Notes: generated from the sequence alone by a model not told the origin. DNA of 64,000 nucleotides from Gammaproteobacteria bacterium (GCA_028817225.1 JAPPQC010000047.1:9284-73283); one strand, 5' to 3'; positions 12,844-60,575 are shown, numbered from the stretch's first letter. A program made the numbers and translations.

Positions 12844-13398
12844 ATGGCGGCAAAAACAACCCCGGTCTGCGAGTTCGGCCTGGCCGCCGCGGACTTCAGC
12901 CTGCCCGGCACAGACGGCAAAACGCACGACCTGCGCGGCTGCATGGGCGACAACGGCCTGCTGGTGATGTTCATCTGCAACCACTGCCCGTTCGTCAAGG
13001 CGATACAGCGCAAACTGGTGCGCGACACCAACGACCTGCTGAAACACGGCATCCACTCGGTCGCCATCATGTCGAACGACCCCGCCGAATACCCGGAAGA
13101 CTCGTTCGACAACATGAAGAAGGTCGCCAAACAATTCGGCTACCCGTTTCCCTATCTCTACGACGAAAGCCAGCAGGTGGCAAAAACCTACGGCGCCGTC
13201 TGCACGCCCGACTTCTTCGGCTACAACAAGGACTGCAAACTCCAGTTTCGCGGGCGCCTCGACGACAGCGGCCCGGTGAAGACCGGCGACAACGCGCCGC
13301 GCGAACTCTACGAAGCGATGAAGCAGGTCGCCGAGACCGGGCGCGGCCCGAAAAAACAGACACCGAGCATCGGCTGCTCAATCAAGTGGCGGCGCTGA
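12844..13398 (+). CDS. Thioredoxin-fold protein (AhpC/TSA/redoxin family, CxxC)
   Basis: Contains the CNHCPFV active-site-like motif. It is 184 aa with no signal peptide. Confidence 0.75.
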   Translation: MAAKTTPVCEFGLAAADFSLPGTDGKTHDLRGCMGDNGLLVMFICNHCPFVKAIQRKLVRDTNDLLKHGIHSVAIMSNDPAEYPEDSFDNMKKVAKQFGYPFPYLYDESQQVAKTYGAVCTPDFFGYNKDCKLQFRGRLDDSGPVKTGDNAPRELYEAMKQVAETGRGPKKQTPSIGCSIKWRR

Positions 13399-13557
13399 CC
13401 GGCGCCGGGCTTGTTCCGCCGGTTTCAGATTAAAGCCGCCGGGCCGTTTCTCCGGCGCCGGTGCAAACGATTGCGGCGCTGACCGGCGCCGGGCTTATTC
13501 CACCAGTTTCAGATTGGGGCCGCCGGGGCGTTTCTTCGGCGCCGGCGCCGAGGATTG
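13390..13557. repeat. Imperfect tandem duplication (2 x ~84 bp, ~85% identity) of the sspB 3' end
   Basis: Copy 2 (13474-13557) encodes the real sspB C-terminus (...PGGPNLKLVE*). Copy 1 (13390-13473) is a degenerate duplicate in the intergenic spacer. It begins exactly at the convergent redoxin stop codon. Confidence 0.75.
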
Positions 13558-13926
13558 CCGCGCCGGCGATTGCGGTTGCGGCGGTTGCGCCGCCGGCGGC
13601 TGCGCGCCGGACGACGGCGCCTTGTCCGACAGCATCATGCCCTGCATGTTCTCGCGCGCGTAAATCATCAGCACCGCGTCCAGCGGCACCACGACCATCT
13701 CGGCGCGCCCGCCGAAACGCGCGCTGAAAGAAACCGCCTCGTCGTCCATCACAAAATCGCGCACCGCGTCCGCCGAGATGTTCAGCGTAACCAGGTTGTT
13801 CCTGTCGTGGCCGGGCGGCATCCGCACGCCGGGGTGCAGCAGATTGAAGACAATGTGCGGCGTGCAGCCGTTGTCCACAATCCACTGGTGGATCGCGCGA
13901 AACAGATAGGGCCGCCGCGAGGTCAA
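13495..13926 (-). CDS. sspB: ClpXP protease specificity-enhancing factor / stringent starvation protein B
   Basis: The N-terminus MTSRRPYLFRAIHQWIVDNGCTPHIVF matches SspB. The C-terminal tail is unstructured, Pro/Gln-rich and ends in an XB-like terminus. Confidence 0.9.
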   Translation of the reverse strand: MTSRRPYLFRAIHQWIVDNGCTPHIVFNLLHPGVRMPPGHDRNNLVTLNISADAVRDFVMDDEAVSFSARFGGRAEMVVVPLDAVLMIYARENMQGMMLSDKAPSSGAQPPAAQPPQPQSPARQSSAPAPKKRPGGPNLKLVE

Positions 13927-13935
13927 GGCCGCAGT

Positions 13936-14541
13936 TTACCGGGGCGCGAGGTCGGCCTCGGCTTCGGTCAGGCTCAGGCGGAACGAAGGCCGCTCGAAAA
14001 TCCGCTTGGCGTACTGCCACACCGGCTTGAGCCGCCTGTTGGAGGCGTAGGTGATGTTCAGCGGCGGCAGGCGCCACAGAATCGAGGCGAGGCTGCAATC
14101 GAGCAGGCTGAACTCGTCGTTCAGGAAATAGCGGCTCGACTGGAAGATGGAGACCTGCGACAGCAGCGCCTCTTCCAGCACCTTCCGCGCCTTGTTGGCG
14201 ACCTTGCGGTTTGACGACTGCGCCTTCTTCAACTGCGGGTACCAGTCGGTCTCGATGTGGTACATGCCGAGGCGCAGGCGCGCGCGGCGCATCGGATCAA
14301 TCGGCATCAGCGGCGGATGCGGAAAGCGCTCTTCCAGGTAATCGAGGATGGTGCGCGAATCATAGATGACGATGTCGCGGTCCACCAGCGTCGGCACCGA
14401 GTTGTAGGGGTTGATCTCGGACAAATCGCCGGGCGGCCTGGCGCCGTCCACCGGCACCGTGTTGAAGTCAATCTCCTTCTCGGCCAGCGTAATCCGCACA
14501 CGGTGGCACAGCGGGCACAGCGAGCCGGAGAACAGCGTCAT
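13936..14541 (-). CDS. sspA: Stringent starvation protein A (GST-like transcription factor)
   Basis: The core from MTLFSGSLCPLCHRVRITLAEKEI... to ...SLTEAEADL aligns along its whole length with E. coli SspA. The ORF continues in-frame upstream to 14820 through a Lys/Ala-rich repeat (see findings). The core start is given here. Confidence 0.9.
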   Translation of the reverse strand: MTLFSGSLCPLCHRVRITLAEKEIDFNTVPVDGARPPGDLSEINPYNSVPTLVDRDIVIYDSRTILDYLEERFPHPPLMPIDPMRRARLRLGMYHIETDWYPQLKKAQSSNRKVANKARKVLEEALLSQVSIFQSSRYFLNDEFSLLDCSLASILWRLPPLNITYASNRRLKPVWQYAKRIFERPSFRLSLTEAEADLAPR

Positions 14542-14689
14542 CACAATCTGGCGGTCCGGCAGCAGCGTCGTCTTGCCGTCGGCCTGCTCGTCGCCCTGCT
14601 CCTCAGACTGATCTTCGATCTGGTCGTCCGGCTGCTCGTCCGGCGCGCCGTTCGCCGCGGCCTCCGCCCTGGCGTTCGCCTCGGCCTCC

Positions 14690-14800
14690 GCCTTGGCTTT
14701 CACCGCGGCGTCCGCCTTGGCCTTCGCCACGGCGTCCGCTTTGGCCTTCGCCGCAGCGTTCGCTTTGGCTTTCACCGAAGCGTTCGCCTTCTTCTTAGTG
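14690..14800. repeat. Array of ~15-bp tandem repeats (GCCTTGGCYTTCGCC-like, 7 units)
   Basis: Seen directly between the petC stop and the sspA core. In the sspA frame it encodes (AKAKADA)n. Confidence 0.7.
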
Positions 14801-15541
14801 GATGTCTTTCCAGTACTCACGTTTCAGAAAATAAGTTACGCCGAGCAGCAGCAACAGAAACAGGATAACCCAGATTCCGGATTTCTCGCGCTTCAGCGCC
14901 GCCGGCTCGGCCAGATAGGCAAGAAAAGTGACCAGGTCGCGCACGACCTCGTCGTATTCCTCTTCGGACAGCAAACCGGGCTTGACCAGTTCAAAACCGG
15001 CAATCACCCGCCGGTCGCCGTTGGCTCCGCCGTTCTCTTTATACACCGGTTGCTGCCATCCTTGCAACTCCCACAGCACATGCGGCATCGCAACATGCTG
15101 AAATATCGCGTTATTTACCCCCATCGGACGGGACTCGTCCAGGTAGAAGGCCTTCAGGTAGGTGTAGAGCCAGTCCACCCCGCGCGAACGCGCCACCAGC
15201 GTCAAATCCGGCGCCGGCGCGCCGAACCATTCCAGCGCCTTGTCCTCCGGCATCGCGACCGTCATCAGGTCGCCAATCTTGCCGCCGGTCAGAATCAGGT
15301 TTTCCCTGACCAACTCCTCCGACAGACCGAGGTCCTCGCCGACCCACTGGTAACGCGCATAACGCGAACTGTGGCAACTCAAACAGTAGTTGACGAAATA
15401 CTTCGCGCCGCGCTGCAACGCGGCGTGGTTGTGAATGCTGATCTCGACCGCCTGCAGCGGATAGCCCAAATCCGCCGCCGCCGCCGGCGCCGGCGCAGCC
15501 GCCAGCGCAGCCAGCAGCGCCGCCGCCGCCCGCGCGCTCAC
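14795..15541 (-). CDS. petC: Cytochrome c1 of ubiquinol-cytochrome c reductase
   Basis: Heme site CLSCH, a C-terminal TM anchor, and a signal peptide MSARAAAALLAALAAAPAPAAAA. The GTG start overlaps the petB stop (ATGTGA). The 835-aa ORF-track entry is a frame fusion and is rejected. Confidence 0.9.
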   Translation of the reverse strand: MSARAAAALLAALAAAPAPAAAADLGYPLQAVEISIHNHAALQRGAKYFVNYCLSCHSSRYARYQWVGEDLGLSEELVRENLILTGGKIGDLMTVAMPEDKALEWFGAPAPDLTLVARSRGVDWLYTYLKAFYLDESRPMGVNNAIFQHVAMPHVLWELQGWQQPVYKENGGANGDRRVIAGFELVKPGLLSEEEYDEVVRDLVTFLAYLAEPAALKREKSGIWVILFLLLLLGVTYFLKREYWKDIH

Positions 15542-17525: not shown

Positions 17526-17577
17526 GAAGAGGGGGCGCCCCGGAAGTCAGCCGACTCCGGCGCGTGAACAATCCCGC

Positions 17578-18505: not shown

Positions 18506-18584
18506 TTGCCGCCGCCCGCCGACGCCCGTTCGCGCAACGCGCCGGCCAGGGCGTCGTTGCCGGCGCGTATCCGGTCCACGGCCA

Positions 18585-19901
18585 TCAGCGCGTCATGCGG
18601 CAGCGCGCCGACGCCTCGTGCGCGAACAGCCCCTCGGCGCGCGCCAGGCTGCGCGCAACCCGCCCCAGCCGGTCGGCGCTGCGCGGCGTGCAGCGCACGA
18701 CGCTGGTGCGCTTCTGAAAATCGTGCGCGCCGAGCGGCGAGAAAAAGCGCGCGCTGCCGCCGGTCGGCAACACATGGTTCGGCCCGGCGCAGTAATCGCC
18801 GAGCACCTCGGAAGTGTGGCGCCCGACGAAAACGGCGCCGGCGTTGCGCACGCCGCCAAGCAGTTCATCCGGGCGCTCGACCGACAGTTCCAGATGCTCC
18901 GGCGCCAACCGGTTGGCGATGGCGACGGCCTCGTCCAGATCGCCGACCTCGGCCATCAGACCGAAGTCGCGCAGCGACGCGCGGATGATGCCGGCGCGCG
19001 GCATGTCGCCGATCAGTTCGTTCATGCAGCGCAGCACCTGGTCCAGATAGCCGGCGTCGGGGCACAGCAGCATCGCCCGCGCCTGCTCGTCGTGCTCGGC
19101 CTGCGCGAACAGGTCGCACGCAATCCAGCGCGGCTCGGTGCGCCCGTCGCAGATGACCAGAATCTCGGACGGCCCAGCGATCAAATCCACGCCGACGCGC
19201 CCGAAGACCTGGCGCTTGGCCTCGGCGACCCAGGCGTTGCCGGGGCCGACAATCTTGCACACCGGCGCGACGCTGCGCGTGCCGTGCGCCAGCGCCGCCA
19301 CCGCGTGCGCGCCGCCGAGCGTGTAAATCTCCGACACACCGGCGATTTCCGCCGCCTTCATCACCGCCGCGTCCGGCGCGCCGTCGGCCACCGGCGCCAT
19401 CATGACAATGCGCCCGACACCGGCCACCTGCGCCGGCACGGCGTTCATCAGCACCGACGACGGATACGCCGCCTTGCCGCCGGGCACATAAATGCCGACC
19501 GACTCCAGCGCCGTTACGCGCTGCCCCAACTGCGCGCCGTCGTCGTCCTCAAACTGCCAGTCATGGAGCATCTGGCGTTCGGCGTAGCGCCGGATTCTGT
19601 CCGCCGCCTGTTCCAGCGCGTGCGCGACTTCCGGCGGCGCCGACGCGGCGATGGCGGCGGCGCGCTGCGGCGGCAGCCGCAATTCGGCGGCGTCGTTGAC
19701 TGCAAGCCCGTCAAGGCTCGCGGCGTATTCCACCAGCGCGTCGTCGCCGCGCTCGCGCACAGCGCCGATGATTTCGCGCACGCGCGCCTCAATATCGGCG
19801 GCGGCATCGGCGTGGCGCGCCGCGTAACGGCGCAGGCCGTCGTCAAACCCGCTGTCGCGGGTGCTCAGACGGGTGATTTCAATCGGCGCGGCGGACGGCA
19901 T
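18585..19901 (-). CDS. hisD: Histidinol dehydrogenase
   Basis: 438 aa, typical HisD throughout. Confidence 0.95.
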   Translation of the reverse strand: MPSAAPIEITRLSTRDSGFDDGLRRYAARHADAAADIEARVREIIGAVRERGDDALVEYAASLDGLAVNDAAELRLPPQRAAAIAASAPPEVAHALEQAADRIRRYAERQMLHDWQFEDDDGAQLGQRVTALESVGIYVPGGKAAYPSSVLMNAVPAQVAGVGRIVMMAPVADGAPDAAVMKAAEIAGVSEIYTLGGAHAVAALAHGTRSVAPVCKIVGPGNAWVAEAKRQVFGRVGVDLIAGPSEILVICDGRTEPRWIACDLFAQAEHDEQARAMLLCPDAGYLDQVLRCMNELIGDMPRAGIIRASLRDFGLMAEVGDLDEAVAIANRLAPEHLELSVERPDELLGGVRNAGAVFVGRHTSEVLGDYCAGPNHVLPTGGSARFFSPLGAHDFQKRTSVVRCTPRSADRLGRVARSLARAEGLFAHEASARCRMTR

Positions 19902-19904
19902 GAC

Positions 19905-19985
19905 GGACGGCGGCGGAATGCGGCGTTGAGCAGCGTTGCTTTGGCGGGGCGTTGCGTTGGCGGCGGCGGAATGCGGCGTTGCGAC
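19905..19985. repeat. Tandem duplication (~50-bp period) in the aroG-hisD spacer
   Basis: The motif cggcggcggaatgcggcgttg occurs twice, 50 bp apart, between the DAHP synthase stop and the hisD start. Confidence 0.6.
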
Positions 19986-20000
19986 AACGGCCCCGCAGCG

Positions 20001-23005: not shown

Positions 23006-23602
23006 TCAGGAGGCGGTGTTCAGGCGCCTGAGCAGCGAATCAAAGCCGTCTTCGCGAATTTCGCGGTCAAAACTCTGCCTGAACTGCTTGACCAGGCTGA
23101 GGCCGTCAATCACCAGATCGAAGACCTGCCATCTGCCGTTCCTGTCGTGCATCATGTAGTTGATGCTGAGAGGCGGCTCGTTGGCCTCGAAGGTGACATC
23201 GCTCGCGACCAGCACATACTTGCCGCCGCCCGCCTTCTGCGGCGCGCGGAAACGAATCCGGTCCACCTCGGTCAGCAGTGTCAGCGATTTGCCGTAACTG
23301 CGTATCAGCAGCGACTCCATCGCCGCGGTGAAATTCCGGCGCTGCCCGTCGCCGAGGCCCTTCCAGTGCCTGCCGAGCACCAGGCGGCTCAGGGTCGCGG
23401 TGTCCACCGCCGGCAGAATGCGCTGGCGAATCAGCCGGAACAGCGCGTCGTCGTTGTTCTGATACAGCGCCTTGTTGGCCTTGACCTCGGTCAGCAATTC
23501 CTGCACCAGGCCGTCCACGGCCTTCTTCGCCGCGCCGGTGTCGGCGCAAACCGGCGACGCCAGCGCGAGGCCAGCCATCAGCGCCAGCGCGCCCCGCGTC
23601 AT
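23006..23602 (-). CDS. mlaC: Phospholipid-binding periplasmic protein MlaC (Ttg2D family)
   Basis: A signal peptide followed by an MlaC fold. It sits 3 bp upstream of murA and 3 bp downstream of the giant gene. No mlaFEDB genes are in the window. Confidence 0.8.
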   Translation of the reverse strand: MTRGALALMAGLALASPVCADTGAAKKAVDGLVQELLTEVKANKALYQNNDDALFRLIRQRILPAVDTATLSRLVLGRHWKGLGDGQRRNFTAAMESLLIRSYGKSLTLLTEVDRIRFRAPQKAGGGKYVLVASDVTFEANEPPLSINYMMHDRNGRWQVFDLVIDGLSLVKQFRQSFDREIREDGFDSLLRRLNTAS

Positions 23603-26600
23603 GCCTTTCCTCCTGCACCGCGCGCGGCGTTCGGAAAACGCCGCCGCAAAAACATGCACAGCGCGCCGAGCATCAGCATCAGCAGCCCGGCAACACCGAA
23701 ACTGCCGCCGCCCGCGCCGACTCCGCCGCCGCCACCGGCGCGCAGCCCGAGCGGATCGTGGACGACGCCGTTGGGAAGCGCCTCATCCTCGTCATATTCG
23801 CCGCCGTCGGCGACATAAACCACCAGGCAGGCGTCGCCGCCCGACTTCGGACGCCTGAGACCGCCGCTGTCGCGGTACGGGCTGTCCGCAGCCCCGGTGT
23901 CGTCGGGGCACGCGCCGTTGGCGAGCGGTGCAAAGCCATAGTCGTTGCCGCCGGGCAAGGCCGCGAACGGCTCGGAGGCGCCGTCTTCGCGGTATTTGAA
24001 CAGCGCCAGGTTGGCGTCGGCATAGAGCGATTCCGGCAGCGGAATGATCACGCCGGCGCGGCCTCCGGCCACCGTCGTCGCGGTCGAGTTTTGCGCCATC
24101 CCCGATGAGTAATCCACATCATACACGCTGAAATCATACACCACTTCAAAGCCCTCGACATCGAAGAACGACGCCGCCCAGGTGTCGTACGACGGCGCCG
24201 CGCCGGGCATCAGGTCTTCCCTGTCCGCCGCGCGCCTCAGCGTCGCCGCGCCGAGGCGCACGCTTTGCCCCGGCAGCACCGGGCGGATGTGGTGCCACGA
24301 ATCGGCGCCCGCAAGGCTCCCGTCCGTGTCCAGCACCGCCACCGGCAGGCCGCTGTCGTCTTCGTACAAATCGCTGTCGTCGGCGATGCCGTCCCGGTCG
24401 CCGTCGCTTGCGGCCACAGCCGCCAGCGCATGGGCCGACGGCACAATCGGCCACGAAACCGTCACCGTCGCGGTGGCGCCGCGCCCGGGCGCCGAGATGC
24501 GCAGCGTCACCGAAGTCGGCGTCGTAACCGCCGCCACCGTCAGCGCGACTTCAATGTCGGCGCCCGAACGCACCGCCGACAGCGCCGACAACGCGGCGGC
24601 GCCGGCGCCGGTCGCGGTCACCACAGGCGCGAGGCTCGGGTGCGGATTCTCGACCGGCAGTTGGACGGCGAACACGCCCGCCGACAGCACCGAACGCACA
24701 TCGCCGTCGCCGCGCCCGGCGCCGCTGAACAGCACCGGCGAACCGACCGTCGGCGGCAGCGAGTCGTCGCCAAGCCGCACCACCGTCGTCTGCGTCGCCA
24801 GCCCCAGCGAATAACTGTTTGCCGTCAGCGCGGCGGTGTCGGTGCCGGCACGCCACAACGACGCGCCGGCGCCCGACAGCCCGGCGATGCCCCAGGTGCG
24901 CGAAGCGGTCACGGCGCTTTTTGCGACCGTGAACGAAAAGGTTTTCCTGCCCGTCTGCATCTCACCGGTCGTGAACGACAGCGTCAAATCCGACGCCGCC
25001 TCGGGGCCGTCGTGGTTCGCCTCGACCGCAACCGTGGCCGAGTCGGCGTCGGCGGCCAGGAAGAACAGCCGTTCGCTGTTCATGTTCAATTCCGGCACGC
25101 GGACGATGCGCTGCTCAGACAGCGTGCTTGTCGTGGCCTGCGGCAGCCAGTAGCCCGCCGCGTCCGCCGCCAGCCACCCGATCCGGTGCTCAACGCCGGC
25201 CCGGATGTCGGCAAAATCCACGACCGCGCAGCCGCCGCGCGCCACCGGCGCCCGGTAATTGGCCGGGAAGCGCCCGGTGCAGCCGTAGCCGGGTTCGCCC
25301 GGCGCCGGCGTGTAGCCGAAGGTGTCGCTCAGGTACCAGGCGGTGAGCCTGGCGGCGACGGTGCCGGTCGTGCCGATGCCGAGATGGGCGTCGGCGCCGA
25401 GCACGCGGATGCCCGAATACGCGATGCGGGCGATGTCCGAAACGCCGCGGCCCAACACGACTTGCGGCAGCGCCGCACGCTCGGCGTCCGACAGCGGCGC
25501 CAGCGGATTGCCGCCGTATTCAATTTCCGCCGCATCCGGAATGCCGTCGCCGTCGCCGTCGTCGGTCAGGCCCTCGGCCACGCGCAGTTCCAGAACCCGC
25601 GCAATCCGGTTGGGCGCGGCGTTCAGGCCGCGCAGGTCGGCGTTGTCGTAAATGCCGGCGCCGGCGGCGGGCGGCGTATAGCGCACCCACACCGCGGTTT
25701 CGGTGCCCTGAATCACCGTGTCCAGTTGCAGTTCTATGCCGGTGATGCGCGCCGCGCCCGGTTGCGCCGAAACGCGGTACGCCGCCCGCTCGACGGCGAC
25801 GCTGGCGCTCGTCATTTGCCCCATCTGATGGCCCGGCAGCACCTCGAAACCTTCCAGCGCATCGCCGTCGGCGAGTTCCGCGCCGGCGGCCAGCGCCCGC
25901 GCCGGTTCGTCGAACCGCAGCCACAAACGGCTGCCGGCGTAGCCCGCGCCGTGCAGGCGCGGCGGCGAGACATCGGACACATCCGCCGACGCCGACAAAC
26001 AGCCCGTCATCGTCTCGTCGGTGTCGTAGTACGGGCAATCCTCAAGCGTCCTGGTCATCGGCGCCATGCTTTCCGTCGCGCCGGTGTCGCGCAGGAAAAT
26101 CGCATAGCCGCGAACCATCCGTTCCGGGCGCTGCACGCCGTTGTATGCGACGACAACCCTCGCCTGCGACATCGAACTGGCCACCGACGAAGGCGGGATG
26201 CCGGCGGCGAGCGCGCCGTCCAGCACATTGCCGATTGGCACCGCCCCCGCCCTCGTCAGCGGCGGCTGATTCCTGCCGGGCGCCGAATACAGCGCCAGCG
26301 CGGCGCTTGAAATGGTGACCGGCTCGGTGAACGCCAGCAGATAGCGCAAATCAAACACGCCGGTGTTGGGCGCGCGCTCGACCGACGACAGCACCGAAAA
26401 CTCGGCCACCTCCGGCGCGCCGCTCTCCGGAACGGTCGCCGTGAAAGTCATGTCGTCGTTCTGCGTGTTGCCGAAAATGTCGGTCAGCCGCCCGCCCGGT
26501 ATCGTGAACCGGAAACGCTCGCCGCCGACCGCCGACTCGCCGTTGTCGAGCGTGCCCGTCAGGCGCGCGCGGAATGTCAGCGTCGTCTCGTCCTCGCCGA

Positions 26601-29600
26601 CCGCCACCCGCACATCGGTCGCGGCGCCGTAGCGCACCAGTTCCATGCCGGACACCGTCGCGAACGGCCCGGCGGGCGGCACCGCCGCGCCGTTGCGGCT
26701 GCGCACGCCGAAGTTGTTCATGAAAGTCGCGGCGCTTGCCGTCGTCAGCACATCCTCAATCGTTACTTCCAGCAACAGTTCGGTGGGGCTGCCCGGCACC
26801 GCCGTCGCCTGCGCGGCGGCGCCGACCTGCGGCGCGTTGGCATCGCCGGCGGGCTGCACCTCGCTCCAGACCGGGCGCGCCGGCGCATAGTTTGCAAAAG
26901 ACCGGCCTTCGTCGTCGCTGATTCGCGCCGCCGCCTGCGTCTGCTCAAGGCGCACGATGTAATGCGCCAGCGTCGTCGTCGTGATGTTGATTGCGGACAG
27001 GCCGGTGACGGTCAATTCCCATGTGTCGGAATACACGACGCTGCCCGATGTCATCGCAACCGCGGGCGCGTCGGTGACCGGCGCCGCCGTGAACGACGAA
27101 TAGGCCGTCGCCGATGTCGCCAGGTTCATCACGCCGGCGTCGCTCGTCAGGCTGTCGGCCAGCGCGGCGAGGTCGGCGCCCTCGGCCACCTCCGGCGCCG
27201 AGAACAGCGTGAAACTGTCGGTACTGACGCCGGCCACCGCCTCGGTGAAGCGAAGCCGCCAGGCCATCATCAGCGTGCCGCCGCCGTCGGGCGCAACCCG
27301 GTGGCGGCGGAAGTCGGGCACCGGCGCGCCCGGCGCGCGCAGCCGCAACTGCGGCGGCGCGTTCTCGGGGAAGGCCAGTTGCCGCCGGTATTCGGCGCTG
27401 TTGGCGTCCGCCACCGCATCGGCGACGGCGCCTGCGGCGAGCGTGACGGTGATGGCCTCGACGCCGTCCGGCGAACCGCCGCTGACCGGCGCCGCGCCGC
27501 TGGTTTGCAGCGGAATGTGCAAATTGGCGCCGTCGGCCACGGCATCGCCGGCAAGCGCCGCACCGGTTATCCATTCGCTGGAGGTGGTGACGGCAATCTG
27601 CGCGCGCGCCGCGAAGTCGTTCAGCGTGACCGCCTCGTTGAACACCAGCGTCGCGGTCGCCCGGTTGCCCGCGGGAAAGTCCATCAAGGCGCCCGTCAGC
27701 ACCGGCGCGACGGTGTCCGCCACCTCGTGCGCATCACCGGTGAACGGCAGGCCCTCGATGCCCTGCCCCGGCGCGTCCCTTGCGGCGATGGTCGCGCTCT
27801 CATCCACTTGCAGGCGGTAGAAAACGGGCGCGCCAATCCGCTGGACCAGGCTGCCGGTCGAGACGATGTATTCGCGCGAGACAATGCTGTCGGCGTTGAC
27901 GACCGTGCCGCCCAGCGCCGTTTCATCGGCGCAGGAATCGGCGGCGGCGTCCACCGCGCACACGACAAAGTCGCCGCTGCCGACGCCGCTGACCGGCTCG
28001 GTGAAAACAACCGTCCAGCCGGCGCTGGAGGTGGTGTCCGGGTTTTCCTGTGCATCGCCGCGCGCCGCCGCCGAAACCACCCGCGGCGCCGCCGTGTCGT
28101 GCAGCGTGAAGAAGTCGGTGCGCGCCGCCACGCTGTTGCCGTCAAAACCGCCGGCGGGGATGTCCTCGATGGCGCCTTCGGGGAAGGCGATTTGCAGGAA
28201 ATTCGTCGCCGTGACCGGCACCGCGCCGTCCAGCGGCGCAGGCCCGCTGATTTCAAGCGCAAGGCGCAATTCCCCCGCCTCCAGCACCGCGCCGGTTACG
28301 CGGATGCCGCTGATGGCGTCGTTCAGGACCGCGGTGCGGTCGTAGCCCGCCGGGTCGCCGGCAAGCGACGCCGCCGACGCCGTCGAGAGTCCGGCGTTGA
28401 ACAGCGCAACCAGGGCGTCGGTTGTCGCCGCCGCGCGCCGCACATCCTCGTCAAAGCGGTAGATGATGGTCGTGTTGCCGGTCGAGATGGAGGGCGGCGC
28501 GGTCAGCCGCGGCGGCGTCTCGTCGCGCAGCGTCAGCACGCCGCGCGCGCCGTCGGGGCCGGTTTGCACGACGCCGCCGAGGGCGCGGGTTTTCGGCGGC
28601 ACTTCGCGGATGACATTGGTGTCGGTCGTCGCCGGCAGGTAATACAACGGCGCGCCCGACGGCTCGGCCAGTTCAATGGTGTAACCGGCGGTCGAGGCGG
28701 CGGCGGTGAACTCGAAACCCGCGCCGGCGAAGGTGTCGGCGCCGCGGCGGGATTGGGCGTCGCTGACGCTCGCGGTGCTCGAGGCCAGCGCGTAAATGTC
28801 AAAACTGTTGGCCGCCACGCCGGTGACCGGCTCAGTGAAAGTGACCGTCCATGTAACCCGTCTCGTCGTGCCGCCGGCGACAAGGCCGGCTTGCGCCTCG
28901 ACGGCGGCGATGACCGGCGCGGCGTTGTCGTTGAACCCGAAGTCCGCCGTCTCGCCGCTTGCCAGCAGGTTGCCGGTCGCATCCTGCCAGCGTATGCCGG
29001 CGTCGCCGGTGTAGGTCAGCAGCGTGATGCGCGCGCGCTCGCGCCCTTCGGGCGAGGCGCCGTTCAGCGGCGGCGGCCCCTGTGTCGCGACGGCGAACCG
29101 CACCTCGGTGCTGCCCCCCGCCGGAATCGTCGGAAACGATGTCAATGCCGCCGTCGTAATCCAGCCGCCCGGACTGTCGGTGATTTCAATGTCGGCAATG
29201 CTGCCCGTCGCCGCGTCAAACTGCACCGGCTCGCTGAAGGTCAGCGTCAGGTTTGCGTTGGCGTCGTCGAGGCGGGCGCTCATCAGCGTCGGCGCAACAA
29301 GGTCTTCCGAGGTGTGGAAGGCGCCGCGGCGGTTGTGCCCGCCCATCGTCGCGCGCCGGTCTTCGGCGGGGAACAGCGCGTTGCCGGCGTCGTCGGCGAT
29401 GGCGGCGGCGATCAATTCAACGGTGTAGCCGAAGCCCGCCGGCGGGTACTGCGACGGCGTCAGCGGCCCGAGCGCAATCGCGTAGGTCGCGCTGGCGGCG
29501 CCGGCGCTTTGCCGCGTCACCATCACATTCACATCGTTCGCGAGTTGGCCGCCGGTGTTTTCGCCTGCGAGGCTCACCTCCAGCACGCGGATGCCGCTGC

Positions 29601-32600
29601 TTTGCAGGTTCACGCGTTCGCTGAAGCGGGCGCGGAAATTCATCACATAGCCGCCGGAAGCCGATGTCCGGTTGACCGCCGTGAACTCGAGCAGCCCCGG
29701 CCTCAGGTCGTCGCCGAACGCCAGCGCCCGCGACGGCGTCTGGTGCGTCTCCGCCGGGTGGTCTTCGGCGTCCGCGACATTGTCGGTGATGTCGCCGACG
29801 AAGTTCCGCGCCAGCCGGATTTGCAGCCGCTCGGCGCCGTTTGCCGAGCGCGCCGCGCCTTCCTGAACGGCGCCGCCGAGCGTGCGCACAACCAGCGTCG
29901 CCGTCGTGTTCGAGTCGGTCGCCAGCGAAACCACCTCGACGCCGGTGATGCCGTCCGGGTTCAGCACCGACAGCACAAAGTCGGCGGTGGAGACGGCGGC
30001 GGCGTTGAAGTCGGGGCTGAAGGCGAGGCGCACGGTGTCGTTGTTGTCAAACGACGCCGCCGTCATCTCCGGCGCGGCGTTGTCGTGCGCCGGCAGTCGC
30101 GCCAGATGGTAGCCGGCGGCGACGCTCGCGCCGTCGCCCGCCGTCAGGCTTTGCCCGGCGGCGACGGCGACGGCGCCGCCGGCGGAATCGCCCGACAGCG
30201 TCAGTTCAATGACGCGCGGCGACGCCAGCGCGGCGGCGGTGATGGAAACGCCGCCGCCGGTGTGCGCGAAAACCGCCGGCGAAAGCGGCCCTTGCAGCGG
30301 CTCGCTCATCACCAAGTCAACGCGCCGCCCGTCGCCGTACAGATTCACCTCCACCGCCCACGGGTCGCCGTTGGTGGCGATGTCGTCGAAGCGGTTGCCG
30401 GCGTACGCCAGATGGCCGCGGTCGCGCCCGCCCGCCACCAGCGTTCGCAGGCCGCTCCAGCCGACTGCGGCGATGCCGACATCGGTGCGGGTGGCGGTGT
30501 CGGCGATGTCGCACTCCACACGGAACAGGTCGCGGTAGTCCGTCGTCAGTTCGCCGAAGCGCGTGCGGTTGGCGGCGGCGTCGCCGGCGTCGTAGGCATC
30601 GGCGCCTGTGGCGGTGAAAGTCCACGCCGTCGTGCCGGTCGCCGCCGTCATCGCCGTTTGCAGATAGAACCCGTCTTGACGGGTCGCGGTCAGGCCGGCC
30701 CTCGCGGCGCGGCAGTTGTTCAGGACAGCGGCGTCGTGGGCGATGCCGAATGTCGTCTGCGACAAAAAGGCGCTGCGCGCGGCGCCGTCCGGCGGCGTCA
30801 GCCGCGCCTGTGCGTCAAACGAGAAGGTCGCGCCGTTGACGACCGGGTTGGCGAGTTGATAGGCAATTCGGCTGTCGTCGCCGCAATCATCGCAGGCCAG
30901 CATCTCCGGGGTGTCGGCGTAGAGACTGTTGCCGACAACAGTGCTGAACCCGACGGGGGTCTCGTCGTCTATCGTCACCGTGGCGGTGGGCCGCGCCGAC
31001 GCGACCCGCGACCCCGAACTGCCGTCAAACTGAAGGCTCAGTGTGAACACCTCGTCCGGTTCCGACACCAAATCGTCCAGAATCTCCAGATTCAGGCAGC
31101 GCCTCTGCTCCGAGGCGGAACTCGTGAAATCGGCGAGGCGGCCGTCGCCGGTCAGCGTGTAATCCGTGTCGCGCGCGGCGGTGACGCTGTTCACGGCGAC
31201 GCTCGCCGTCACCGTCCGGTTGAGACTGTAGCCGGGAACGACGACGCAAATCGTCGTCGTCACGCCTTCGGCCAGCGTGTATTCCGCCTGCTCAAAATCA
31301 ACCCGGATGTCGTCGTCGTCCGCGATGATGATTGTTCTGGTTGTTCTATGAATCTCCAAGCCGCTGGTAAATCCCGCGACCACCTGTCCGCTGTCGTAAC
31401 TCAGTTGAAACGCCTTGTCTTCTTCCGCGACATCGTCGTCAATCAGAACCAGCGGAGGATGGACAACTCTCGAATCAAATGTGTTGCTCCGTGCTCCCCG
31501 CCTGATGGATGTGGATGTGGTCAGGCGATAGTCCTGACCCTCCACGGCGTCAAACATGGCGCCGGGCGCGGCGCCCGTCTCCCAGGGAAAATCCACATCC
31601 CGCACCGAGGCCGATGACAGATGCGGAGCCTGATCCGGCCTCAAGGTTCCCTGCGATTCGGATACCCGGATGGGGGTTGTTCTGGCAGTGTTGCGGTCTA
31701 TCCTCCAGCGATTTTCCCGAATAAACTCGTTGTCCAATACCGCCAGCACTGTCTCCTGCACCGGGGAAAAGTTGGCGGCAATTCTCGGATCCTGCTGCTC
31801 ACCCAACTCCCTGGCTTCAGCATGCGTAAGGATGCGAACATCGAACAACTCTTCATCTTCAAGCCCAACACTGTCATCAACGATGTCAAAGTTACTGACC
31901 TCAATGGTAGAGTTCAATCCGAAGGAGCGTGTAAATACGCGCCCAAGACTCGGAAGACTCGGAACAACGGTATCGCGCAGGATTTCCTGCAAAGATCCCC
32001 GAAAAACAATCCGCAAAGCCGGCTGGCCGTCAAATCGGTTTGCGCCGACATTCGTTATCTGCACGAAAAACCCCGGGTCGGATCTCGTATCTTCAACAAA
32101 ATCATGCCGGTCTCTCAAGAAGCCAAACACCAAACGGTCATCTTCCTGAATGGTGATGCCGGTGGTGCTCGCCTCGCCCGCCGTGACCAGCCCGCTGGCG
32201 CTGGTTCCGCCAATCAGCGCGTCATCAATGACAAGGCCCAGCGTTCTGGTGGTCTCGTACCCGTTCACATGCGGTATCGCGATTTTCGCCGGCGCGCCCG
32301 TCTCGCCGGCGGGCAGTGTTACCCGCGTGTTCGCCGTGCCGGCGGGCAGCGCCGTATCGCCGGCGGCGTTGAAGAAGCGGTAATCCCCGGTGCCGGCGAC
32401 AACGCCCATGCTCGTGGGGATGCTCAGGCTGAGCGGCGCAAGCCTCACCGTCACATCCTCCCCGGCCGTGCCGGGCGGCTCAAACCGCAGCCGCGGGTTG
32501 GCGGTGTTGGTGGCGCCGGGCGCCGCCTCGCTGATCAGATAACCGGTGCGCTCAAACACCACCCGCCGCGGGTCGCTTTGGGCGATGGTCGCGCTCTGCG

Positions 32601-37449: not shown

Positions 37450-37538
37450 CGCCGTTTGCGGCGGGCGATGTGCCCGAAAAAGCCGTCACCATCAGGAAGG
37501 CGGCTGTCGCCGGCGAATCATGACGCCGTTTGCGGCGG
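37391..37538. repeat. Tandem duplication (2 x 74 bp) of the ppiA 3' end
   Basis: Copy 1 (37391-37464) is the true gene end, including the TGA at 37447-49. Copy 2 (37465-37538) is a near-identical duplicate in the ppiA-lpxH spacer. Confidence 0.8.
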
Positions 37539-37554
37539 CGGGCGGCGCGGCTGA

Positions 37555-38268: not shown

Positions 38269-38409
38269 CACCGGCGGCGCTGTTCGGCGCACCTTCAACA
38301 CAATACTCAGGCCAACCCAGGCTGATGCCCAAGTCCATACACCGGCGGCGCTGCCCGGCGCAATCTGAAAACAGAACTCAGGCCAACTTCAGGCCGATGA
38401 CCAGGTCCA
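38266..38409. repeat. Tandem duplication (2 x ~72 bp) of the glycerate-kinase gene 3' end
   Basis: Copy 2 (38339-38409) encodes the real C-terminus (MDLVIGLKLA*). Copy 1 (38266-38337) is a diverged duplicate that starts exactly at the convergent lpxH stop codon. Confidence 0.75.
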
Positions 38410-41706: not shown

Positions 41707-42272
41707 CAGATGAAGTCCTCCGGGTCGGCGCCGCGCCGCAGGCCGGGGTTCAGCATGAAGTAGTCCGAGTACGGTTCCGGCAGCACCGACACGACGAAGC
41801 CCGCGCCTTCAAGAAACGGCGGCAGAAACAGCGCGCCGCGCCACCACGGCGAGGACGGCACCTCGGTCAGGCTGAACAGCAGCACCAGCAAAACGACGAT
41901 GGCGCTGCCGCGCACCAGGCCGAAGACGCCGCCGAAAAAGCGGTTGGCGCCGCTGAGCGCGCCGGCGTTGACGGCGCGGTTGATGCGGCGCGCGATGAAG
42001 CGCCCGACAACCAGCACCAGCAGCGCGATGGCGACAAAGGACGCCGCCCGCGCAAGGTCTTCCGCGCCCGCCGTCAGGCCGGCGACGGCCAGTTCGCGCC
42101 CGCGCCATTCCTCCGGCAGCCAGCGCAGCGGGTAGTCGGCAAAACGAAACGCGGCGAAAAACGCCAGCAACAGCGTCGCCAGCGACGCGACCTCGCGGAC
42201 AAAACCCTTGTAAATGCCCAGCACCATCGAGACAAAAACAATGACAAAGATGAAAATATCGAGATACGCCAT
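41706..42272 (-). CDS. cvpA: Colicin V production protein CvpA
   Basis: [28 protein letters not shown]..., four TM helices. It is the immediate upstream partner of purF, as in E. coli. Confidence 0.9.
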
Positions 42273-42344
42273 CGCCGCAGACTCCGTTCAGCCGTCAACG
42301 ACCGGGGTGAAAATATCGGGATATGCCATTGTCGCAGATGCCGT

Positions 42345-42911
42345 TCAACCGCCGTGGCCGTCGTCGTCGTCACCCTGCGAGCGGACCAGCGCCGTGATGC
42401 CGTGTTTCTTTTTCAGGTCGCGGACGATTTGCTCCGCCGCGCCGCGGCTTTTGTGCGGGCCGATTCTGACGAAATAAACCGGCGCGCCCCGCCGGTCCTG
42501 CGCTTCCTTGAAGAAAACCGGATCAAACCCCGCCTTGCTGAGCGTGGCGCGCAAACTGTCGGCGTTCTCCCGCACCGAAAAAACGCCGGCCTGCACAACC
42601 CACAGCGCCCGCGCCGCGCCGTCGGGCGCCCGCGCCGCGCCGTCGCGGACAACCGGCGCCGCCGCCCGCAGCGGCCCTTTCATCGGCGCCCGCCGCACCG
42701 CCGTGCCGGTCGTGCCGGCGGCCTCCCCCTGCGCCCGCTCAAGCGCCGGAAAATGCTGCCCGAAAACAATCGCCGGTTTTTCCGGCGCCTCAATCCTGAC
42801 CTGCGAAAACTCGCGGTAGCCCTCGCCGTCAAACAACGCCGGCAGCACAATGACCGCAAGCGCCACGACAATCACGGCCCCCGCAAGCCTCTCCTTCATC
42901 GGCTGCTCCAT
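42345..42911 (-). CDS. dedD: SPOR-domain cell-division protein (DedD-like)
   Basis: An N-terminal TM helix, a Pro/Ala-rich linker and a C-terminal SPOR domain (WVVQAGVFSVRENADSLRATLSKAGFD...YFVRIGPHKSR). Confidence 0.8.
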   Translation of the reverse strand: MEQPMKERLAGAVIVVALAVIVLPALFDGEGYREFSQVRIEAPEKPAIVFGQHFPALERAQGEAAGTTGTAVRRAPMKGPLRAAAPVVRDGAARAPDGAARALWVVQAGVFSVRENADSLRATLSKAGFDPVFFKEAQDRRGAPVYFVRIGPHKSRGAAEQIVRDLKKKHGITALVRSQGDDDDGHGG

Positions 42912-45399: not shown

Positions 45400-46602
45400 A
45401 TGAGATTCCTGGCCGCCGCCGTCACGCCGGTAACCTGGGCCGACCTGGCGCGCGGCGCGCGCGCCGCCGCCGCGCGCGACGGCGTCGCCGAATTCGAGCG
45501 CGCGCTCGGCGCCTGGTTCGGCGGCGCGCACGCCTGCACATTCGGCTCGCTGATGCGTTCGGTCAAGGCGTGCATGCTGGCGGTGCGCGGAACTTCGACG
45601 CGCCGCCGGGTCGTGCTGTCGCGCTACTCCTGCCCCAGTTTCGCGCACGGCATTCTCGCCGCGGGCCTTGAGATCGAGTATTGCGACACCGACCCGTGCA
45701 CGCTCGCCTTCGACATGGAATGCTTCCGGCGCATTGACCTGTCGCAGGTGTGCGCCGTGGTCTGCGCCAACCTCTTCGGCCTCGCCTACCCGGTGCGCGA
45801 CATCGCCGCCGCGTGCAAGGCCGGCGGCGCGGCGCTGGTCGAGGGCGTGGACTACGGCATCGGCACCGAATCCGGCGGCGCGCGCCTCGGCACGCTCGGC
45901 GACTTTGCGATACTCAACTTCCAGGAAGGCAAGGCGCTGCCCATCGGCGGCGGCGCGGTCGTCACCCGCCACGGCGACGCCATGGAGCGGGTGCCGGGGT
46001 TTTCGCGGCGGCGCCCGCGCGGGCGCCGGATGCTGACGCTGGCGGCGTTCAGAATCCTGACCAATCCGCACGCCTACGGCCTTTTCATCAAAGCCGCGCA
46101 AATCGGAAAAGTCAACCTGCGGCGGCGCTTCTCGATGGAGGACACCATCCGCAAGACACGCGCCGAATACGACTACGCGCCGGAAGGCGGCGCGCTCGAT
46201 TCGGTCTCCGACTTTCAGGCCGGCGTCGGCATGGCGCTGCTGGAGAAACTGGAACACCACATCGAGGTGCGGCGGCGCAACGCCGGCATCATCGAGGAGA
46301 CGCTCGGCGGCGCGCGCGGCGTTGAACTGATCGAGCGCGACCCCGGCCTCGGCAAGACGCACTACATCCGCTACCCGTGCCTCGTCGCCGCCGGCGCGCG
46401 CGACGGCCTGATCGCGCACCTGCACCGGCGCCGCATCGAGGCCAGCTGGATGTATGTGGACCAGGGCATGGAGGTGGACGCCGCGCGCTTCCCCGGCGCG
46501 CGGCGCATCCGCGACTGCCTGGTGACGCTGCCGTGCCACCCGCATGTGACCGCCGACGACGCGCGGCGCATCGCGCGAACCACCGCCGAATTTCTCGCCT
46601 GA
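45400..46602 (+). CDS. DegT/DnrJ/EryC1/StrS-family PLP-dependent (sugar) aminotransferase
   Basis: Family pattern across the protein, including the PLP lysine region LGDFAILNFQEGKALPIGGGAVVT. It is on the opposite strand to the flanking accD and folC. The 110-bp spacer before it is AT-rich and divergent from folC. Confidence 0.75.
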   Translation: MRFLAAAVTPVTWADLARGARAAAARDGVAEFERALGAWFGGAHACTFGSLMRSVKACMLAVRGTSTRRRVVLSRYSCPSFAHGILAAGLEIEYCDTDPCTLAFDMECFRRIDLSQVCAVVCANLFGLAYPVRDIAAACKAGGAALVEGVDYGIGTESGGARLGTLGDFAILNFQEGKALPIGGGAVVTRHGDAMERVPGFSRRRPRGRRMLTLAAFRILTNPHAYGLFIKAAQIGKVNLRRRFSMEDTIRKTRAEYDYAPEGGALDSVSDFQAGVGMALLEKLEHHIEVRRRNAGIIEETLGGARGVELIERDPGLGKTHYIRYPCLVAAGARDGLIAHLHRRRIEASWMYVDQGMEVDAARFPGARRIRDCLVTLPCHPHVTADDARRIARTTAEFLA

Positions 46603-55213: not shown

Positions 55214-55260
55214 TACAATCATGCGCCGCCGCAAAACCGCGCGACGCCGGAAAAACAACG

Positions 55261-56897: not shown

Positions 56898-56922
56898 GTC
56901 GGCAACGGCGGGTTTCGGGTGA

Positions 56923-57602
<680 letters not shown>

Positions 57603-57606
<4 letters not shown>

Positions 57607-58847: not shown

Positions 58848-58850
58848 GCG

Positions 58851-60092
58851 CTACTCCCCGACGACATCGCCGATGTGCACCTCGACGGCGTCGCCGGCGC
58901 CCGGCCCGAGCGCGCTTTCGCCGATGAAGTCGCCGGCCTGCGCCGCCGCCCGCCCCGACTTCGACACGCGCGCGACGACGCGCAGCGAATCAAAGTCATC
59001 GAGCGTCATCGCCGGCGTCATTGCGTTCTCCCTGCCGAGGTACGCCTCAAGCGGCAGGTCGGCGGCGCGGAAACGCCGGATGGCCAGCGGCATCGGCAGC
59101 CCCGAAGCGGCCTTGGCATAGACGAACACCGTGTCGTCGGGCGCCGTCCGTTCCAGCAGTTCAGGCGCAATCGAGACCAGCACAGCGATGCGGCGCCCGC
59201 CGCCGTCCGGCGCGGGCCGCGCGTCGCCGCCGGGCGCGGCGTCGGCGGGCGCGGCGGCGCCGTCGCCGCCTTCCATCCGGCTGCGCGCCGCGGCGATTTG
59301 CTCGCCGATGGCGTCGCGCACGCCGTCGTTGTCTTCAATGCCGCTTTGCAGGCGGCTCCAGTGGCGAATCGCCTGCGCGTAGTCTTCGGCCTGGAAGTTG
59401 GCCATGCCGAGCAGCCACAGGCCCTTTTCATTGTCCGGGTCGGTGGCCAGCGCCTGCTCCAGCAGCGCCACCGTGTCGGCGCTGAAACGCCCGCCGGCGC
59501 CGAGGAACAGCGCCTCGGCGTAATCCACCTTCAGCCAGTCGTCCAGTTCAATGTGCTTCGCCGCCTCGCGGTAGGCGTTCGCCGCCTGCGCGTATTCGCC
59601 GAGCATCTTGCTCGACTCCGCCAGCAGCACCCAGCCGGCGGCGTCTTCCGGCGCATCGCCGAGTTCGCCCGCAAGGCGCTCCACCATCTGCTCAAATTCC
59701 TGCTGCGGCGGCGGCCCGGCGACCCCTTCCGGGTAGCCGCTCGACCACAGCAGATACAAACCGGCGCTCGCGCCGACGACAAAAAGCGACAACACCGCCG
59801 CACTCGCGCGCCGCCAGCGCCAGTCCGCCGCGGCATTGTCTTCGCCGACATCACCCTCATTGGCGCTCTCCAAATCACGGCGCACGCTTTCATAGTCGGA
59901 TGAATCCAGCAAGCCGCTTTCCACATCGCGGCGCAACTCCTCCAGTTGCGCCGACAGCACCGTGGCGCCGGCGTCGTCCCTGTCGGCGGCGTCGCGCGCG
60001 GCGCGCGCGCGCGCCAGCAGCGGCCACGCCAGCCACAGCAGCGCAATCGCCCACAGCAGCGCGACACCAATCCAGAACAGCGTCAGCAGCAC
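58851..60092 (-). CDS. ccmI: Cytochrome c-type biogenesis protein CcmI (CycH), TPR-containing
   Basis: Two N-terminal TM helices and TPR repeats. It is the last gene of the ccm operon. Confidence 0.8.
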   Translation of the reverse strand: MLLTLFWIGVALLWAIALLWLAWPLLARARAARDAADRDDAGATVLSAQLEELRRDVESGLLDSSDYESVRRDLESANEGDVGEDNAAADWRWRRASAAVLSLFVVGASAGLYLLWSSGYPEGVAGPPPQQEFEQMVERLAGELGDAPEDAAGWVLLAESSKMLGEYAQAANAYREAAKHIELDDWLKVDYAEALFLGAGGRFSADTVALLEQALATDPDNEKGLWLLGMANFQAEDYAQAIRHWSRLQSGIEDNDGVRDAIGEQIAAARSRMEGGDGAAAPADAAPGGDARPAPDGGGRRIAVLVSIAPELLERTAPDDTVFVYAKAASGLPMPLAIRRFRAADLPLEAYLGRENAMTPAMTLDDFDSLRVVARVSKSGRAAAQAGDFIGESALGPGAGDAVEVHIGDVVGE

Positions 60093-60098
60093 CGCGCC

Positions 60099-60494
60099 CT
60101 ACTCCGGTTCGCCGTCCGAACGCCGCCGGTGCACCACCTGCCACCGGAACAGCCAGAACAGCCCGCCCGCCAGCAGCGCCGCAGGCGCCAGCCACAACAG
60201 CCAGGTCGCCGGCCTGAAACGCGGCCTGAAAAGGACGAAATCGCCGTAGCGCGCGGTCATGAAGTCCACAATCTCGCGGTTGCTCTTGCCGTCGGCGACC
60301 ATCGCGCGCACTTCGTCGCGCAAGTCACCGGCGAGTTCGGCGCTGGAATCCGACAGCGACTGGTTCTGACACACCAGGCAGCGCAACTCTTTCAGCAATT
60401 CGTAATAGCGCCGCTCCTGCTCAACGGACGCAAACGGCTCGGCGCCGGCCACCGCCAGCGACAGCAACACCGCATGAAACAACGCCGCCGTCAT
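60099..60494 (-). CDS. ccmH: Cytochrome c-type biogenesis protein CcmH (CycL)
   Basis: LRCLVCQNQSL motif and a C-terminal TM helix. The start is taken as the internal Met MTAALFHAV. Confidence 0.88.
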   Translation of the reverse strand: MTAALFHAVLLSLAVAGAEPFASVEQERRYYELLKELRCLVCQNQSLSDSSAELAGDLRDEVRAMVADGKSNREIVDFMTARYGDFVLFRPRFRPATWLLWLAPAALLAGGLFWLFRWQVVHRRRSDGEPE

Positions 60495-60575
60495 CGCACC
60501 CGCCCGGCGGCGGCCACCACCGGCGACAACAGCACCGCATGAATCAACGCCACCATCACTGCATCCGCCCGGCGC
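60459..60575. repeat. Tandem duplication (~52-bp unit, 65-bp period) of the ccmG-stop/ccmH-start junction
   Basis: Copy A is cgacagcaacaccgcatgaaacaacgccgccgtcatcgcacccgcccggcgg and copy B is cgacaacagcaccgcatgaatcaacgccaccatcactgcatccgcccggcgc. Copy B carries the ccmG stop and copy A carries the ccmH start. Between them lies a 21-codon pseudo-start ORF (MVALIHAVLLSPVVAAAGRVR*) whose TGA overlaps the ccmH ATG. Confidence 0.75.

Follow-up and report, generated by a model that had tools for sequence, protein, structure and literature searches.

Tandem duplication of gene junctions in a gene-dense, GC-rich gammaproteobacterial genome region: anatomy, strain polymorphism and reading frame

Gene junctions duplicated in the window

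We present here an analysis of short tandem duplications at gene boundaries in a 64,000-nt stretch of DNA from an uncultured gammaproteobacterium (GCA_028817225.1, JAPPQC010000047.1:9284-73283), which is called the window throughout. It is part of a 464-kb metagenome scaffold assembled by metaSPAdes (ERZ23496436, ROBB21-1_SAMN13943218 scaffold_1), has 67% G+C and is 95% coding, with about 50 genes mapped from the called genes of matching loci and from Pfam scans. On the whole, five gene boundaries of the window carry a segment in two copies, in every instance exactly head-to-tail with nothing inserted between them (Table 1). Four of them are two-copy arrays of long period, on which Tandem Repeats Finder (TRF), an ungapped comparison and a near-diagonal scan are concordant, and these are located at redoxin/sspB, ppiA/lpxH, lpxH/glxK and ccmG/ccmH. 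An earlier reading of the sequence, below the original prediction, had listed five gene-end duplications, whose numbers we keep as cases 1 to 5; these four prove real, local and head-to-tail, while for the remaining one, case 2, descent from a gene end is not demonstrable. The fifth duplicated boundary, between a SPOR-domain gene and cvpA, was absent from that list and comes from the near-diagonal scan, and a further duplication is found at the stop/start junction of ccmA and ccmB just outside the window. The alignment scores of the spacers against their flanks lie 8.8 to 37 standard deviations above those of shuffled sequences, and after each duplication one whole copy of either flanking gene persists.

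Cases 1 and 4 are located between convergent genes. In case 1 the genes are redoxin (+) and sspB (-), and the unit runs from the last 10 nt of redoxin across the 12-nt spacer into the terminal ~62 nt of sspB, so placed that redoxin terminates within the first copy and sspB within the second. The extra copy had been described as starting exactly at the redoxin stop; the unit begins 10 nt before the end of the stop codon, and the pseudo sspB tail thereby follows the stop immediately and fills the spacer. This pseudo-copy differs between strains, with the functional copy invariant. In case 4, which joins lpxH to the gene of a MOFRL-family glycerate kinase (glxK, on the minus strand), the copy does begin at the lpxH stop as claimed, the first base of the unit being the last base of the lpxH TGA. 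The other junctions are co-directional. In case 3, where ppiA precedes lpxH, it is indeed the ppiA 3' end that is duplicated before lpxH, and the copies differ by four mismatches, at each of which ppiA itself has A and its pseudo-copy G. The units of case 5, SPOR/cvpA and ccmA/ccmB each hold the upstream stop codon together with the downstream start codon; in case 5 the TGA of the pseudo ccmG end shares bases with the start codon of functional ccmH (ATG, 60494-60492).

Table 1. Coordinates of the duplications, their copies, the small open reading frames and other features of the window (uORF, upstream open reading frame)
Feature	Position	Strand	Period or length	Identity of copies	Content
Case 1, redoxin/sspB	13389-13563		84 nt	85%	
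Case 1, copy 1	13389-13472				13389-13398, last 10 nt of functional redoxin (+) including TGA
Case 1, copy 1, pseudo part	13399-13472				copy of 12-nt spacer and last ~62 nt of sspB; stop TAA now CAA
Case 1, copy 2	13473-13563				13473-13482, pseudo redoxin end; 13483-13494, original 12-nt convergent spacer
Case 1, copy 2, gene part	13495 onward	-			functional sspB 3' end
Case 3, ppiA/lpxH	37391-37538		74 nt	94%	
Case 3, copy 1	37391-37464	+			last 59 nt of functional ppiA (stop 37447-37449) and 15 nt downstream
Case 3, copy 2	37465-37538	+			pseudo ppiA tail
Case 4, lpxH/glxK	38268-38410		71 nt	80%	
Case 4, copy 1	38268-38338			80%, 1 indel	pseudo-copy of 38-nt lpxH/glxK spacer and last ~10 codons of glxK (-)
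Case 4, copy 2	38339-38410				original spacer and functional glxK 3' end (stop 38378-38380)
Case 5, ccmG/ccmH	60440-60576		65 nt	83%	
Case 5, downstream copy (gene orientation)	60440-60504	-			pseudo ccmG end (...GRVR, stop) and first ~17 ccmH codons
Case 5, upstream copy	60505-60576	-			functional ccmG end (stop 60556-60558) overlapping pseudo-ccmH start
SPOR/cvpA	42238-42351		57 nt x 2	77% (44/57)	
SPOR/cvpA, promoter-distal copy	42238-42294	-			duplicated SPOR-type stop TGA (42288-42290), 15-nt leader, functional cvpA start (ATG 42272-42270) and first codons
SPOR/cvpA, upstream copy	42295-42351	-			SPOR-domain gene end (true stop 42345-42347), 15-nt leader, pseudo-cvpA start
ccmA/ccmB (stop/start)	~1 kb past right end of window (locus L015)		64 nt		
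ppiA-lpxH relay	37446-37558	+			two small ORFs linking ppiA to lpxH
uORF1	37446-37523	+	25 codons		starts in ATGA on ppiA stop
uORF2	37520-37558	+	12 codons		from ATGA on uORF1 stop to ATGA on lpxH start (37555)
Case 5 uORF	60559 (GTG) or 60556 (ATG) down to 60491	-	21-22 codons		
SPOR/cvpA uORF	42329 down to 42288	-	13 codons		MAYPDIFTPVVDG, then stop; ends on duplicated TGA
Case 2, aroG-hisD insert	19910-19997		88 nt		some strains only; endpoints ambiguous by 3 nt (CGC)
Repeat in SPOR-domain gene	42605-42645		21 nt x 2	perfect	in frame, 7 aa
Array from cytochrome c1 gene to sspA	14613-14804		24 nt (sub-period 12 nt)		~5-8 copies
Calx-beta repeat protein gene	23599-36402	-	4267 aa		
DegT/DnrJ/EryC1 aminotransferase gene	45400-46602				between folC and accD
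Family-4 glycosyltransferase paralogues	4690-5844, 7101-8269, 8262-9416				
ispG	5851-7083				between first and second paralogue

A near-identical 18-mer, GGCGGCGCTG(A/C)CCGGCGC, heads the units of cases 1 and 4 (13388-13405 and 38344-38361) and occurs a third time at 57371-57388; it may be a chance product of GC-rich sequence or a slippage-prone motif.

The aroG-hisD spacer differs from these junctions. What had been read there as a duplication (19905-19985) is just an exact 21-nt direct repeat, CGGCGGCGGAATGCGGCGTTG, at 19908 and 19961 (spacing ~50 nt), within a strain-variable insert. One strain carries an allele without the insert, with an aroG-hisD spacer of 11 nt (TGACGC followed by CGTCCGTCATG), and four sibling scaffolds have N gaps precisely at the insert site. 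Compared with its neighbouring genes, the insert aligns best over a GC-rich 23-mer located 165 nt inside hisD. Descent from the hisD start, in degenerate form, was considered as well and rejected for the weak alignment and for the position of that match. Downstream of hisD, a stretch of the 79-nt spacer agrees at 25/29 positions with the hisD tail, offset by 89 nt (18507-18534 against 18596-18624), a score equalled in 2 of 200 shuffles; it may represent an older and decayed junction duplication.

Reality and locality of the copies

The same duplications are present in metaSPAdes, MEGAHIT and Logan contigs and in two metagenome-assembled genomes (MAGs) from NCBI, from different samples; the case 3 sequence is identical in 10 assemblies, and the case 5 duplication is carried by 8. 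Because independent assemblies from different assemblers carry them, the duplications are real and not artefacts of assembly. An artefact would mean that two strain variants of one segment were joined head-to-tail during metagenome assembly or scaffolding, and the origin of the window in a metaSPAdes metagenome scaffold fits such an explanation, as do the sibling scaffolds L001, L002, L005, L006, L007, L009, L010 and L011, whose Ns sit exactly at the polymorphic junctions (lpxH/glxK, aroG/hisD and SPOR/cvpA), and among which L002 repeats after its gap the sequence that precedes it. However, the copies of the window contain no N at all, the same junction sequences were recovered from independent samples by three other assemblers, and a contig drawn from a de Bruijn graph requires reads across the copy-to-copy junction, so that we consider this explanation close to negligible. 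The variation of the junction duplications between strains is rather what breaks the sibling assemblies.

A sensitive BLAST search of each unit against the 64-kb window returned the tandem partner only, and the repeat listing contains no dispersed family of this kind. Within the sequence searched, the 64 kb and the loci retrieved, the copies therefore do not belong to a dispersed family such as REP, ERIC or MITE, in accordance with the original prediction that they are local and not of a named repeat type. Like REP/BIME, ERIC and MITE elements they are short and intergenic, but unlike these they are locus-unique in the window, derived from adjacent coding sequence and non-palindromic.

Integrative elements are known to carry replacement 3' ends of genes, e14 at icd being an example, and the original prediction had considered footprints of such elements, since lost, as a lesser possibility. 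The copies would then be attachment-site copies of gene 3' ends or long target-site duplications. No result of the present analysis favours such an origin. The copies abut exactly, leaving no element DNA between them, the borders of the units vary from case to case with no motif in common, and the units span 5' starts and stop/start junctions as well as 3' ends. Among the called and Pfam-scanned genes of the window, those around the junctions are all housekeeping genes, with no integrase, transposase or reverse transcriptase beside them. Lost elements are thus highly improbable as the source. Diversity-generating retroelements were considered as well, since they too place an imperfect copy of a gene 3' end nearby and all the mismatches of case 3 are A/G. 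They were rejected: the polarity in case 3 is the wrong one, the mismatches elsewhere are of mixed spectra and overall not adenine-specific, the targets are housekeeping genes, and the window has no reverse transcriptase.

Unduplicated junctions in a sister species

Relatives were ranked by the identity of LpxH and CcmG. The profile of contig matches listed includes no close relative, the best being Candidatus Porisulfidus with 53% identity. A sister species is represented by long-read contigs (ERZ22155170) with 83-86% protein identity to the focal lineage, and it has the overlapping, unduplicated junctions for which the original prediction had looked to related genomes: ppiA/lpxH overlap by 4 nt (ATGA), ccmG/ccmH by 4 nt and ccmA/ccmB by 8 nt. 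SPOR/cvpA and lpxH/glxK are spaced there by 16 nt and 42 nt, respectively. These values agree with the geometry before duplication as deduced from the copies themselves, and the near-diagonal scan of 41 kb of sister-species sequence detects zero duplications. Therefore, all the events arose on the focal lineage.

Shorter repeats are seen at one of these junctions in the relatives. The lpxH stop is located inside a 13-nt unit present three times in the sister species (CGCCGGACTGAAC; L022, 10700-10760), and inside a 12-nt unit present twice in a relative of 89% identity (CCGGACTGAAA; L023, 10700-10750). Here the same junction shows the phenomenon on a small scale, independently of the events in the window. 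In a more distant relative (L024, 6260-6390; 68% LpxH identity), a 66-nt segment comprising the leader and start of a Dyp-type peroxidase gene is duplicated. The upstream copy retains a perfect TATAAT, which the copy adjoining the real start has lost, and the pseudo-start shares the frame of the true one and could give a 22-aa N-terminal extension.

Strain polymorphism and decay

The strains compared are 98.4-99.8% identical in the housekeeping genes flanking the junctions. Despite this, the lpxH/glxK spacer has three alleles, each found in at least two independent samples: a single copy (L003, L114, L116 and L119), a 77-nt duplication whose copies are 89% identical, and the 71-nt duplication of the window, with copies 80% identical. 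The two duplicated alleles have copy-specific differences in common (TT vs CC; CAAG), so that they probably go back to a single event, with divergence, conversion or collapse afterwards, as judged from the sequences. The single-copy allele, which coexists with them, may be ancestral or may result from a loss. Most strains have two copies of the SPOR/cvpA unit, and L005 has at least four. Case 3 shows no difference across strains in 105 nt; functional constraint on its pseudo-copy was considered and set aside, the local neutral divergence being just ~2%, at which invariance is uninformative.

The mismatches between copies are mainly transitions, as ordinary decay predicts. Identities of 80-97% had been taken to reflect events of different ages, a reading that is unsafe: the identity of the copies is unreliable as a clock, because strains ~99% identical carry very different lpxH/glxK alleles.

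Location at gene boundaries and density

All five duplications in the window include a gene boundary, while only ~10% of random placements of 57-84 nt do not fall wholly inside a coding sequence. The boundary bias that the original prediction pointed out is more simply explained by purifying selection. The window is 95% coding and few placements spare a coding sequence, and an unbiased supply of mutations, filtered by purifying selection, suffices to produce the enrichment. The long-period intragenic tandem repeats of the window have periods divisible by 3, and the control sequences described below yield intergenic or in-frame hits and no others. One of these repeats is a perfect 21-nt duplication within the SPOR-domain gene (Table 1), which illustrates how recent intragenic duplications survive at multiples of three.

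Density was measured by the near-diagonal scan at identical thresholds for window and controls (period >=50, score >=26), the controls being 80 gammaproteobacterial lpxH loci and 200 kb of a Ralstonia megaplasmid of 67% G+C, 1.49 Mb in total. The window has 5 duplications in 64 kb against 17 in the controls (11 per Mb), an excess of ~7x (Poisson P ~0.001), in a comparison that is biased by the window having been picked for these repeats. In the unselected flanks there is 1 event in ~15 kb. The recurrence at many junctions claimed by the original prediction is thus borne out against the control. Moreover, 6 of the 13 mid-sized spacers of the window (52-114 nt) are duplicated or polymorphic, namely the five junction duplications and the spacer with the aroG-hisD insert, and thus junction duplication is a major local source of intergenic DNA.

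Relay reading frames between co-directional genes

At the co-directional junctions, the length of the unit puts the open reading frame (ORF) of the pseudo-start in frame with the duplicated upstream stop in 4/4 clear cases: 65 nt at ccmG/ccmH and 74 nt at the ppiA tail, both with an ATGA junction, 64 nt at ccmA/ccmB with its 8-nt overlap, and 57 nt at SPOR/cvpA with an in-frame offset of 18 nt. The chance of four in four is (1/3)^4 = 0.012. The result is a small upstream ORF (uORF) that leads from one gene to the next. In case 5, where the original prediction had correctly described the duplicated ccmG-stop/ccmH-start junction and its uORF, this has 21 codons from ATG or 22 from GTG, and its end overlaps the ccmH start in an ATGA. 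Between ppiA and lpxH there are two in succession (Table 1). The end of the second, GCGGCTGAATGA, is the ppiA terminus of the sister species, while its beginning resembles lpxH; it is present also in the relative of 89% identity (L023). From the sequence, this suggests that uORF2 is the trace of an older, nested junction duplication of ~35 nt that would likewise comply with the frame. The frame rule may be understood as selection keeping termination-reinitiation coupling, or as selection barring an out-of-frame ORF across the true start.

These features bear on an adaptive explanation, in which the duplications would have been selected for separating the genes, for allowing their independent evolution or for providing regulatory or terminator space. 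Three co-directional junctions that overlap in the sister species are indeed separated in the focal lineage, and the share of duplicated or polymorphic ones among the mid-sized spacers is what such selection could produce. But the relief of overlap, which the original prediction had put forward, is not required by the data and does not fit both convergent pairs and SPOR/cvpA, which never overlapped (spacers of 12, 38 and 15 nt before duplication), and at the co-directional junctions the relay uORFs preserve the stop/start coupling. Terminator space fares no better: when the new spacers were folded and scanned, no terminator-like site was found, and the fold z-scores of -1.8 to +0.8 against shuffles are non-significant, so that a terminator or structured-RNA role was rejected. 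In addition, the single-copy lpxH/glxK allele occurs beside duplicated ones in near-identical strains, and the pseudo-copies are decaying. We therefore regard adaptive de-overlapping as improbable.

Other variable loci of the window

Variation between strains is observed at several further loci of the window, whose positions are given in Table 1. A giant Calx-beta repeat protein has a length of 4251-4532 aa between strains, and the 3' 3 kb of its gene are 88.5% identical between strain groups that are ~99% identical in the adjoining housekeeping genes. The DegT/DnrJ/EryC1 aminotransferase gene is missing in the siblings L001, L002, L003 and L005, and is found in the sister species beside a methyltransferase gene, a polymorphism of gene presence and absence. 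Between the cytochrome c1 gene and sspA, an array coding for AKAEAAAN-like repeats keeps the frame of a ~70-aa extension at the N terminus of SspA as called. The gap between these two genes is 19 nt in some strains and up to 340 nt elsewhere, the gene calls vary, and TRF does not detect the array in L011, L013 and L014. At the scale of whole genes, the same region includes three tandem paralogues of a family-4 glycosyltransferase, with 77-93% nucleotide identity over long stretches, and ispG is located between the first and the second.

Discussion

Taken together, these junctions are probably spontaneous local tandem duplications, formed by replication slippage or by microhomology-mediated template switching and then filtered by selection. 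In such a process, duplications of 57-84 bp, along with smaller ones of 12-35 bp, would arise in a GC-rich genome that is 95% coding. One lying wholly within a gene would disrupt it, while one containing a gene boundary would leave one whole copy of either flanking gene, and the survivors would then be boundary-spanning events and in-frame intragenic ones. The redundant half-copies would become new spacer DNA that decays neutrally and is itself unstable, subject to collapse, expansion and possibly gene conversion. At coupled co-directional junctions, survival would be limited to those lengths that bring the ORF of the pseudo-start into the frame of the duplicated stop, and ribosomes would be passed from gene to uORF to gene across the same ATGA or short-spacer junctions. 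Of this account, the sequences show the anatomy and locality of the copies, the unduplicated ancestral junctions, the polymorphism between strains, the frame rule and the excess of density; slippage as the mechanism, the neutrality of the copies and selection for coupling are inferred from them.

Microhomology is found at the borders of two units. In case 1, GCGGCGC at the start of the unit corresponds to GCCGCGC in the last 7 nt of copy 2, just beyond the end of the unit (7 nt with 1 mismatch), and in case 5 the 7-nt CGGCGCC stands at both borders. A study in yeast reports that pairs of long GC-rich microhomologies are ~1000x more prone to tandem duplication, with frequent reversion (PMC8639346).

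Several observations weigh against this account. Case 4 has a microhomology of 2 nt (TG) and case 3 has none, so that classic microhomology slippage is not demonstrated there, and at SPOR/cvpA the borders are ill-defined. The pseudo-copy of case 4 differs at ~12/50 positions between strains ~1% apart in the flanking genes, which exceeds clock-like neutral decay and points to gene conversion, imported alleles or imperfect birth. The excess density carries the bias of selection already mentioned, and the frame rule is based on 4-5 events.

Imperfect birth in particular would mean that a lineage-specific error-prone break repair, template switching or fill-in resembling non-homologous end joining made the copies divergent from the beginning, explaining both divergence and rate. 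The 20% divergence of the case 4 pseudo-copy, the alleles standing far apart in ~99% identical strains, the microhomology of 0-2 nt in cases 3 and 4, and the burst specific to the focal lineage as compared with the sister species are all consistent with it. On the other hand, the mismatch spectra are the ordinary, transition-dominated ones, the case 3 copies are 94% identical and invariant in 10 assemblies, and conversion or collapse of an old duplication accounts equally for the case 4 alleles. We accordingly give copies imperfect at birth only a small chance, and retain local duplication with ordinary decay as the probable course.

A wider interpretation is that junction duplication is a lineage-specific, still active process from which most new intergenic DNA of this compact, symbiont-type genome derives. 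It would systematically turn overlapping or abutting junctions into spacers with relay uORFs that are selected for frame and preserve the coupling, and an altered replication or repair might drive it, making duplicates at a high rate and perhaps imperfect ones. This is possible, and on balance we think it rather unlikely.

The mechanism is most likely of a known kind, while the pattern is little described and modestly novel. The nearest known events are microhomology-mediated tandem duplications (MTDs), which are likewise head-to-tail and of tens to hundreds of bp, with GC-rich microhomology at the borders as in cases 1 and 5, frequent collapse to one copy, and survivors biased to in-frame or non-coding sites (PMC8639346). 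The MTDs of that study differ in being mostly subclonal, intragenic events of yeast, reported to be ~20x rarer in E. coli (PMC8639346), whereas the events of the window are fixed or polymorphic in a natural bacterial lineage and all span boundaries, two of them without clear microhomology. A likeness is also seen to tandem duplication and random loss in animal mitochondria, where compact genomes have spacers that are decaying partial copies of neighbouring genes, and published papers attribute mitogenome spacers to tandem duplication. Those events usually involve whole genes or tRNAs and change the gene order, whereas here segments of 57-84 bp at junctions are duplicated and the order is unchanged. 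As to the short overlaps and translational coupling of operons (ATGA, TGATG), the ancestral junctions are the classic overlaps of 4 and 8 nt, and the relay uORFs reuse ATGA; coupling by termination and reinitiation requires overlaps or very short distances (PMC10666635). Overlaps are usually gained or lost by point mutation of a start or stop, whereas here the junction is duplicated and bridged by a uORF. Duplication goes unmentioned in a preprint on how short gene overlaps evolve, and the literature searched yielded no account of this pattern in bacteria.

The novelty, a modest one, lies in the high density in one lineage, the instability at the level of strains and the relay uORFs compatible in frame. 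In practice, the identity of copies serves poorly for dating gene-end duplications, and imperfect tandem copies of gene ends in MAGs can be real and strain-variable and can cause gaps in scaffolds. If the pattern is genome-wide, it would provide tightly packed or overlapping bacterial genes with a concrete and datable route to spacers, to small upstream ORFs and to raw material for new regulatory sequence, and the selection on coupling would constrain, through the frame rule, which structural mutations survive.

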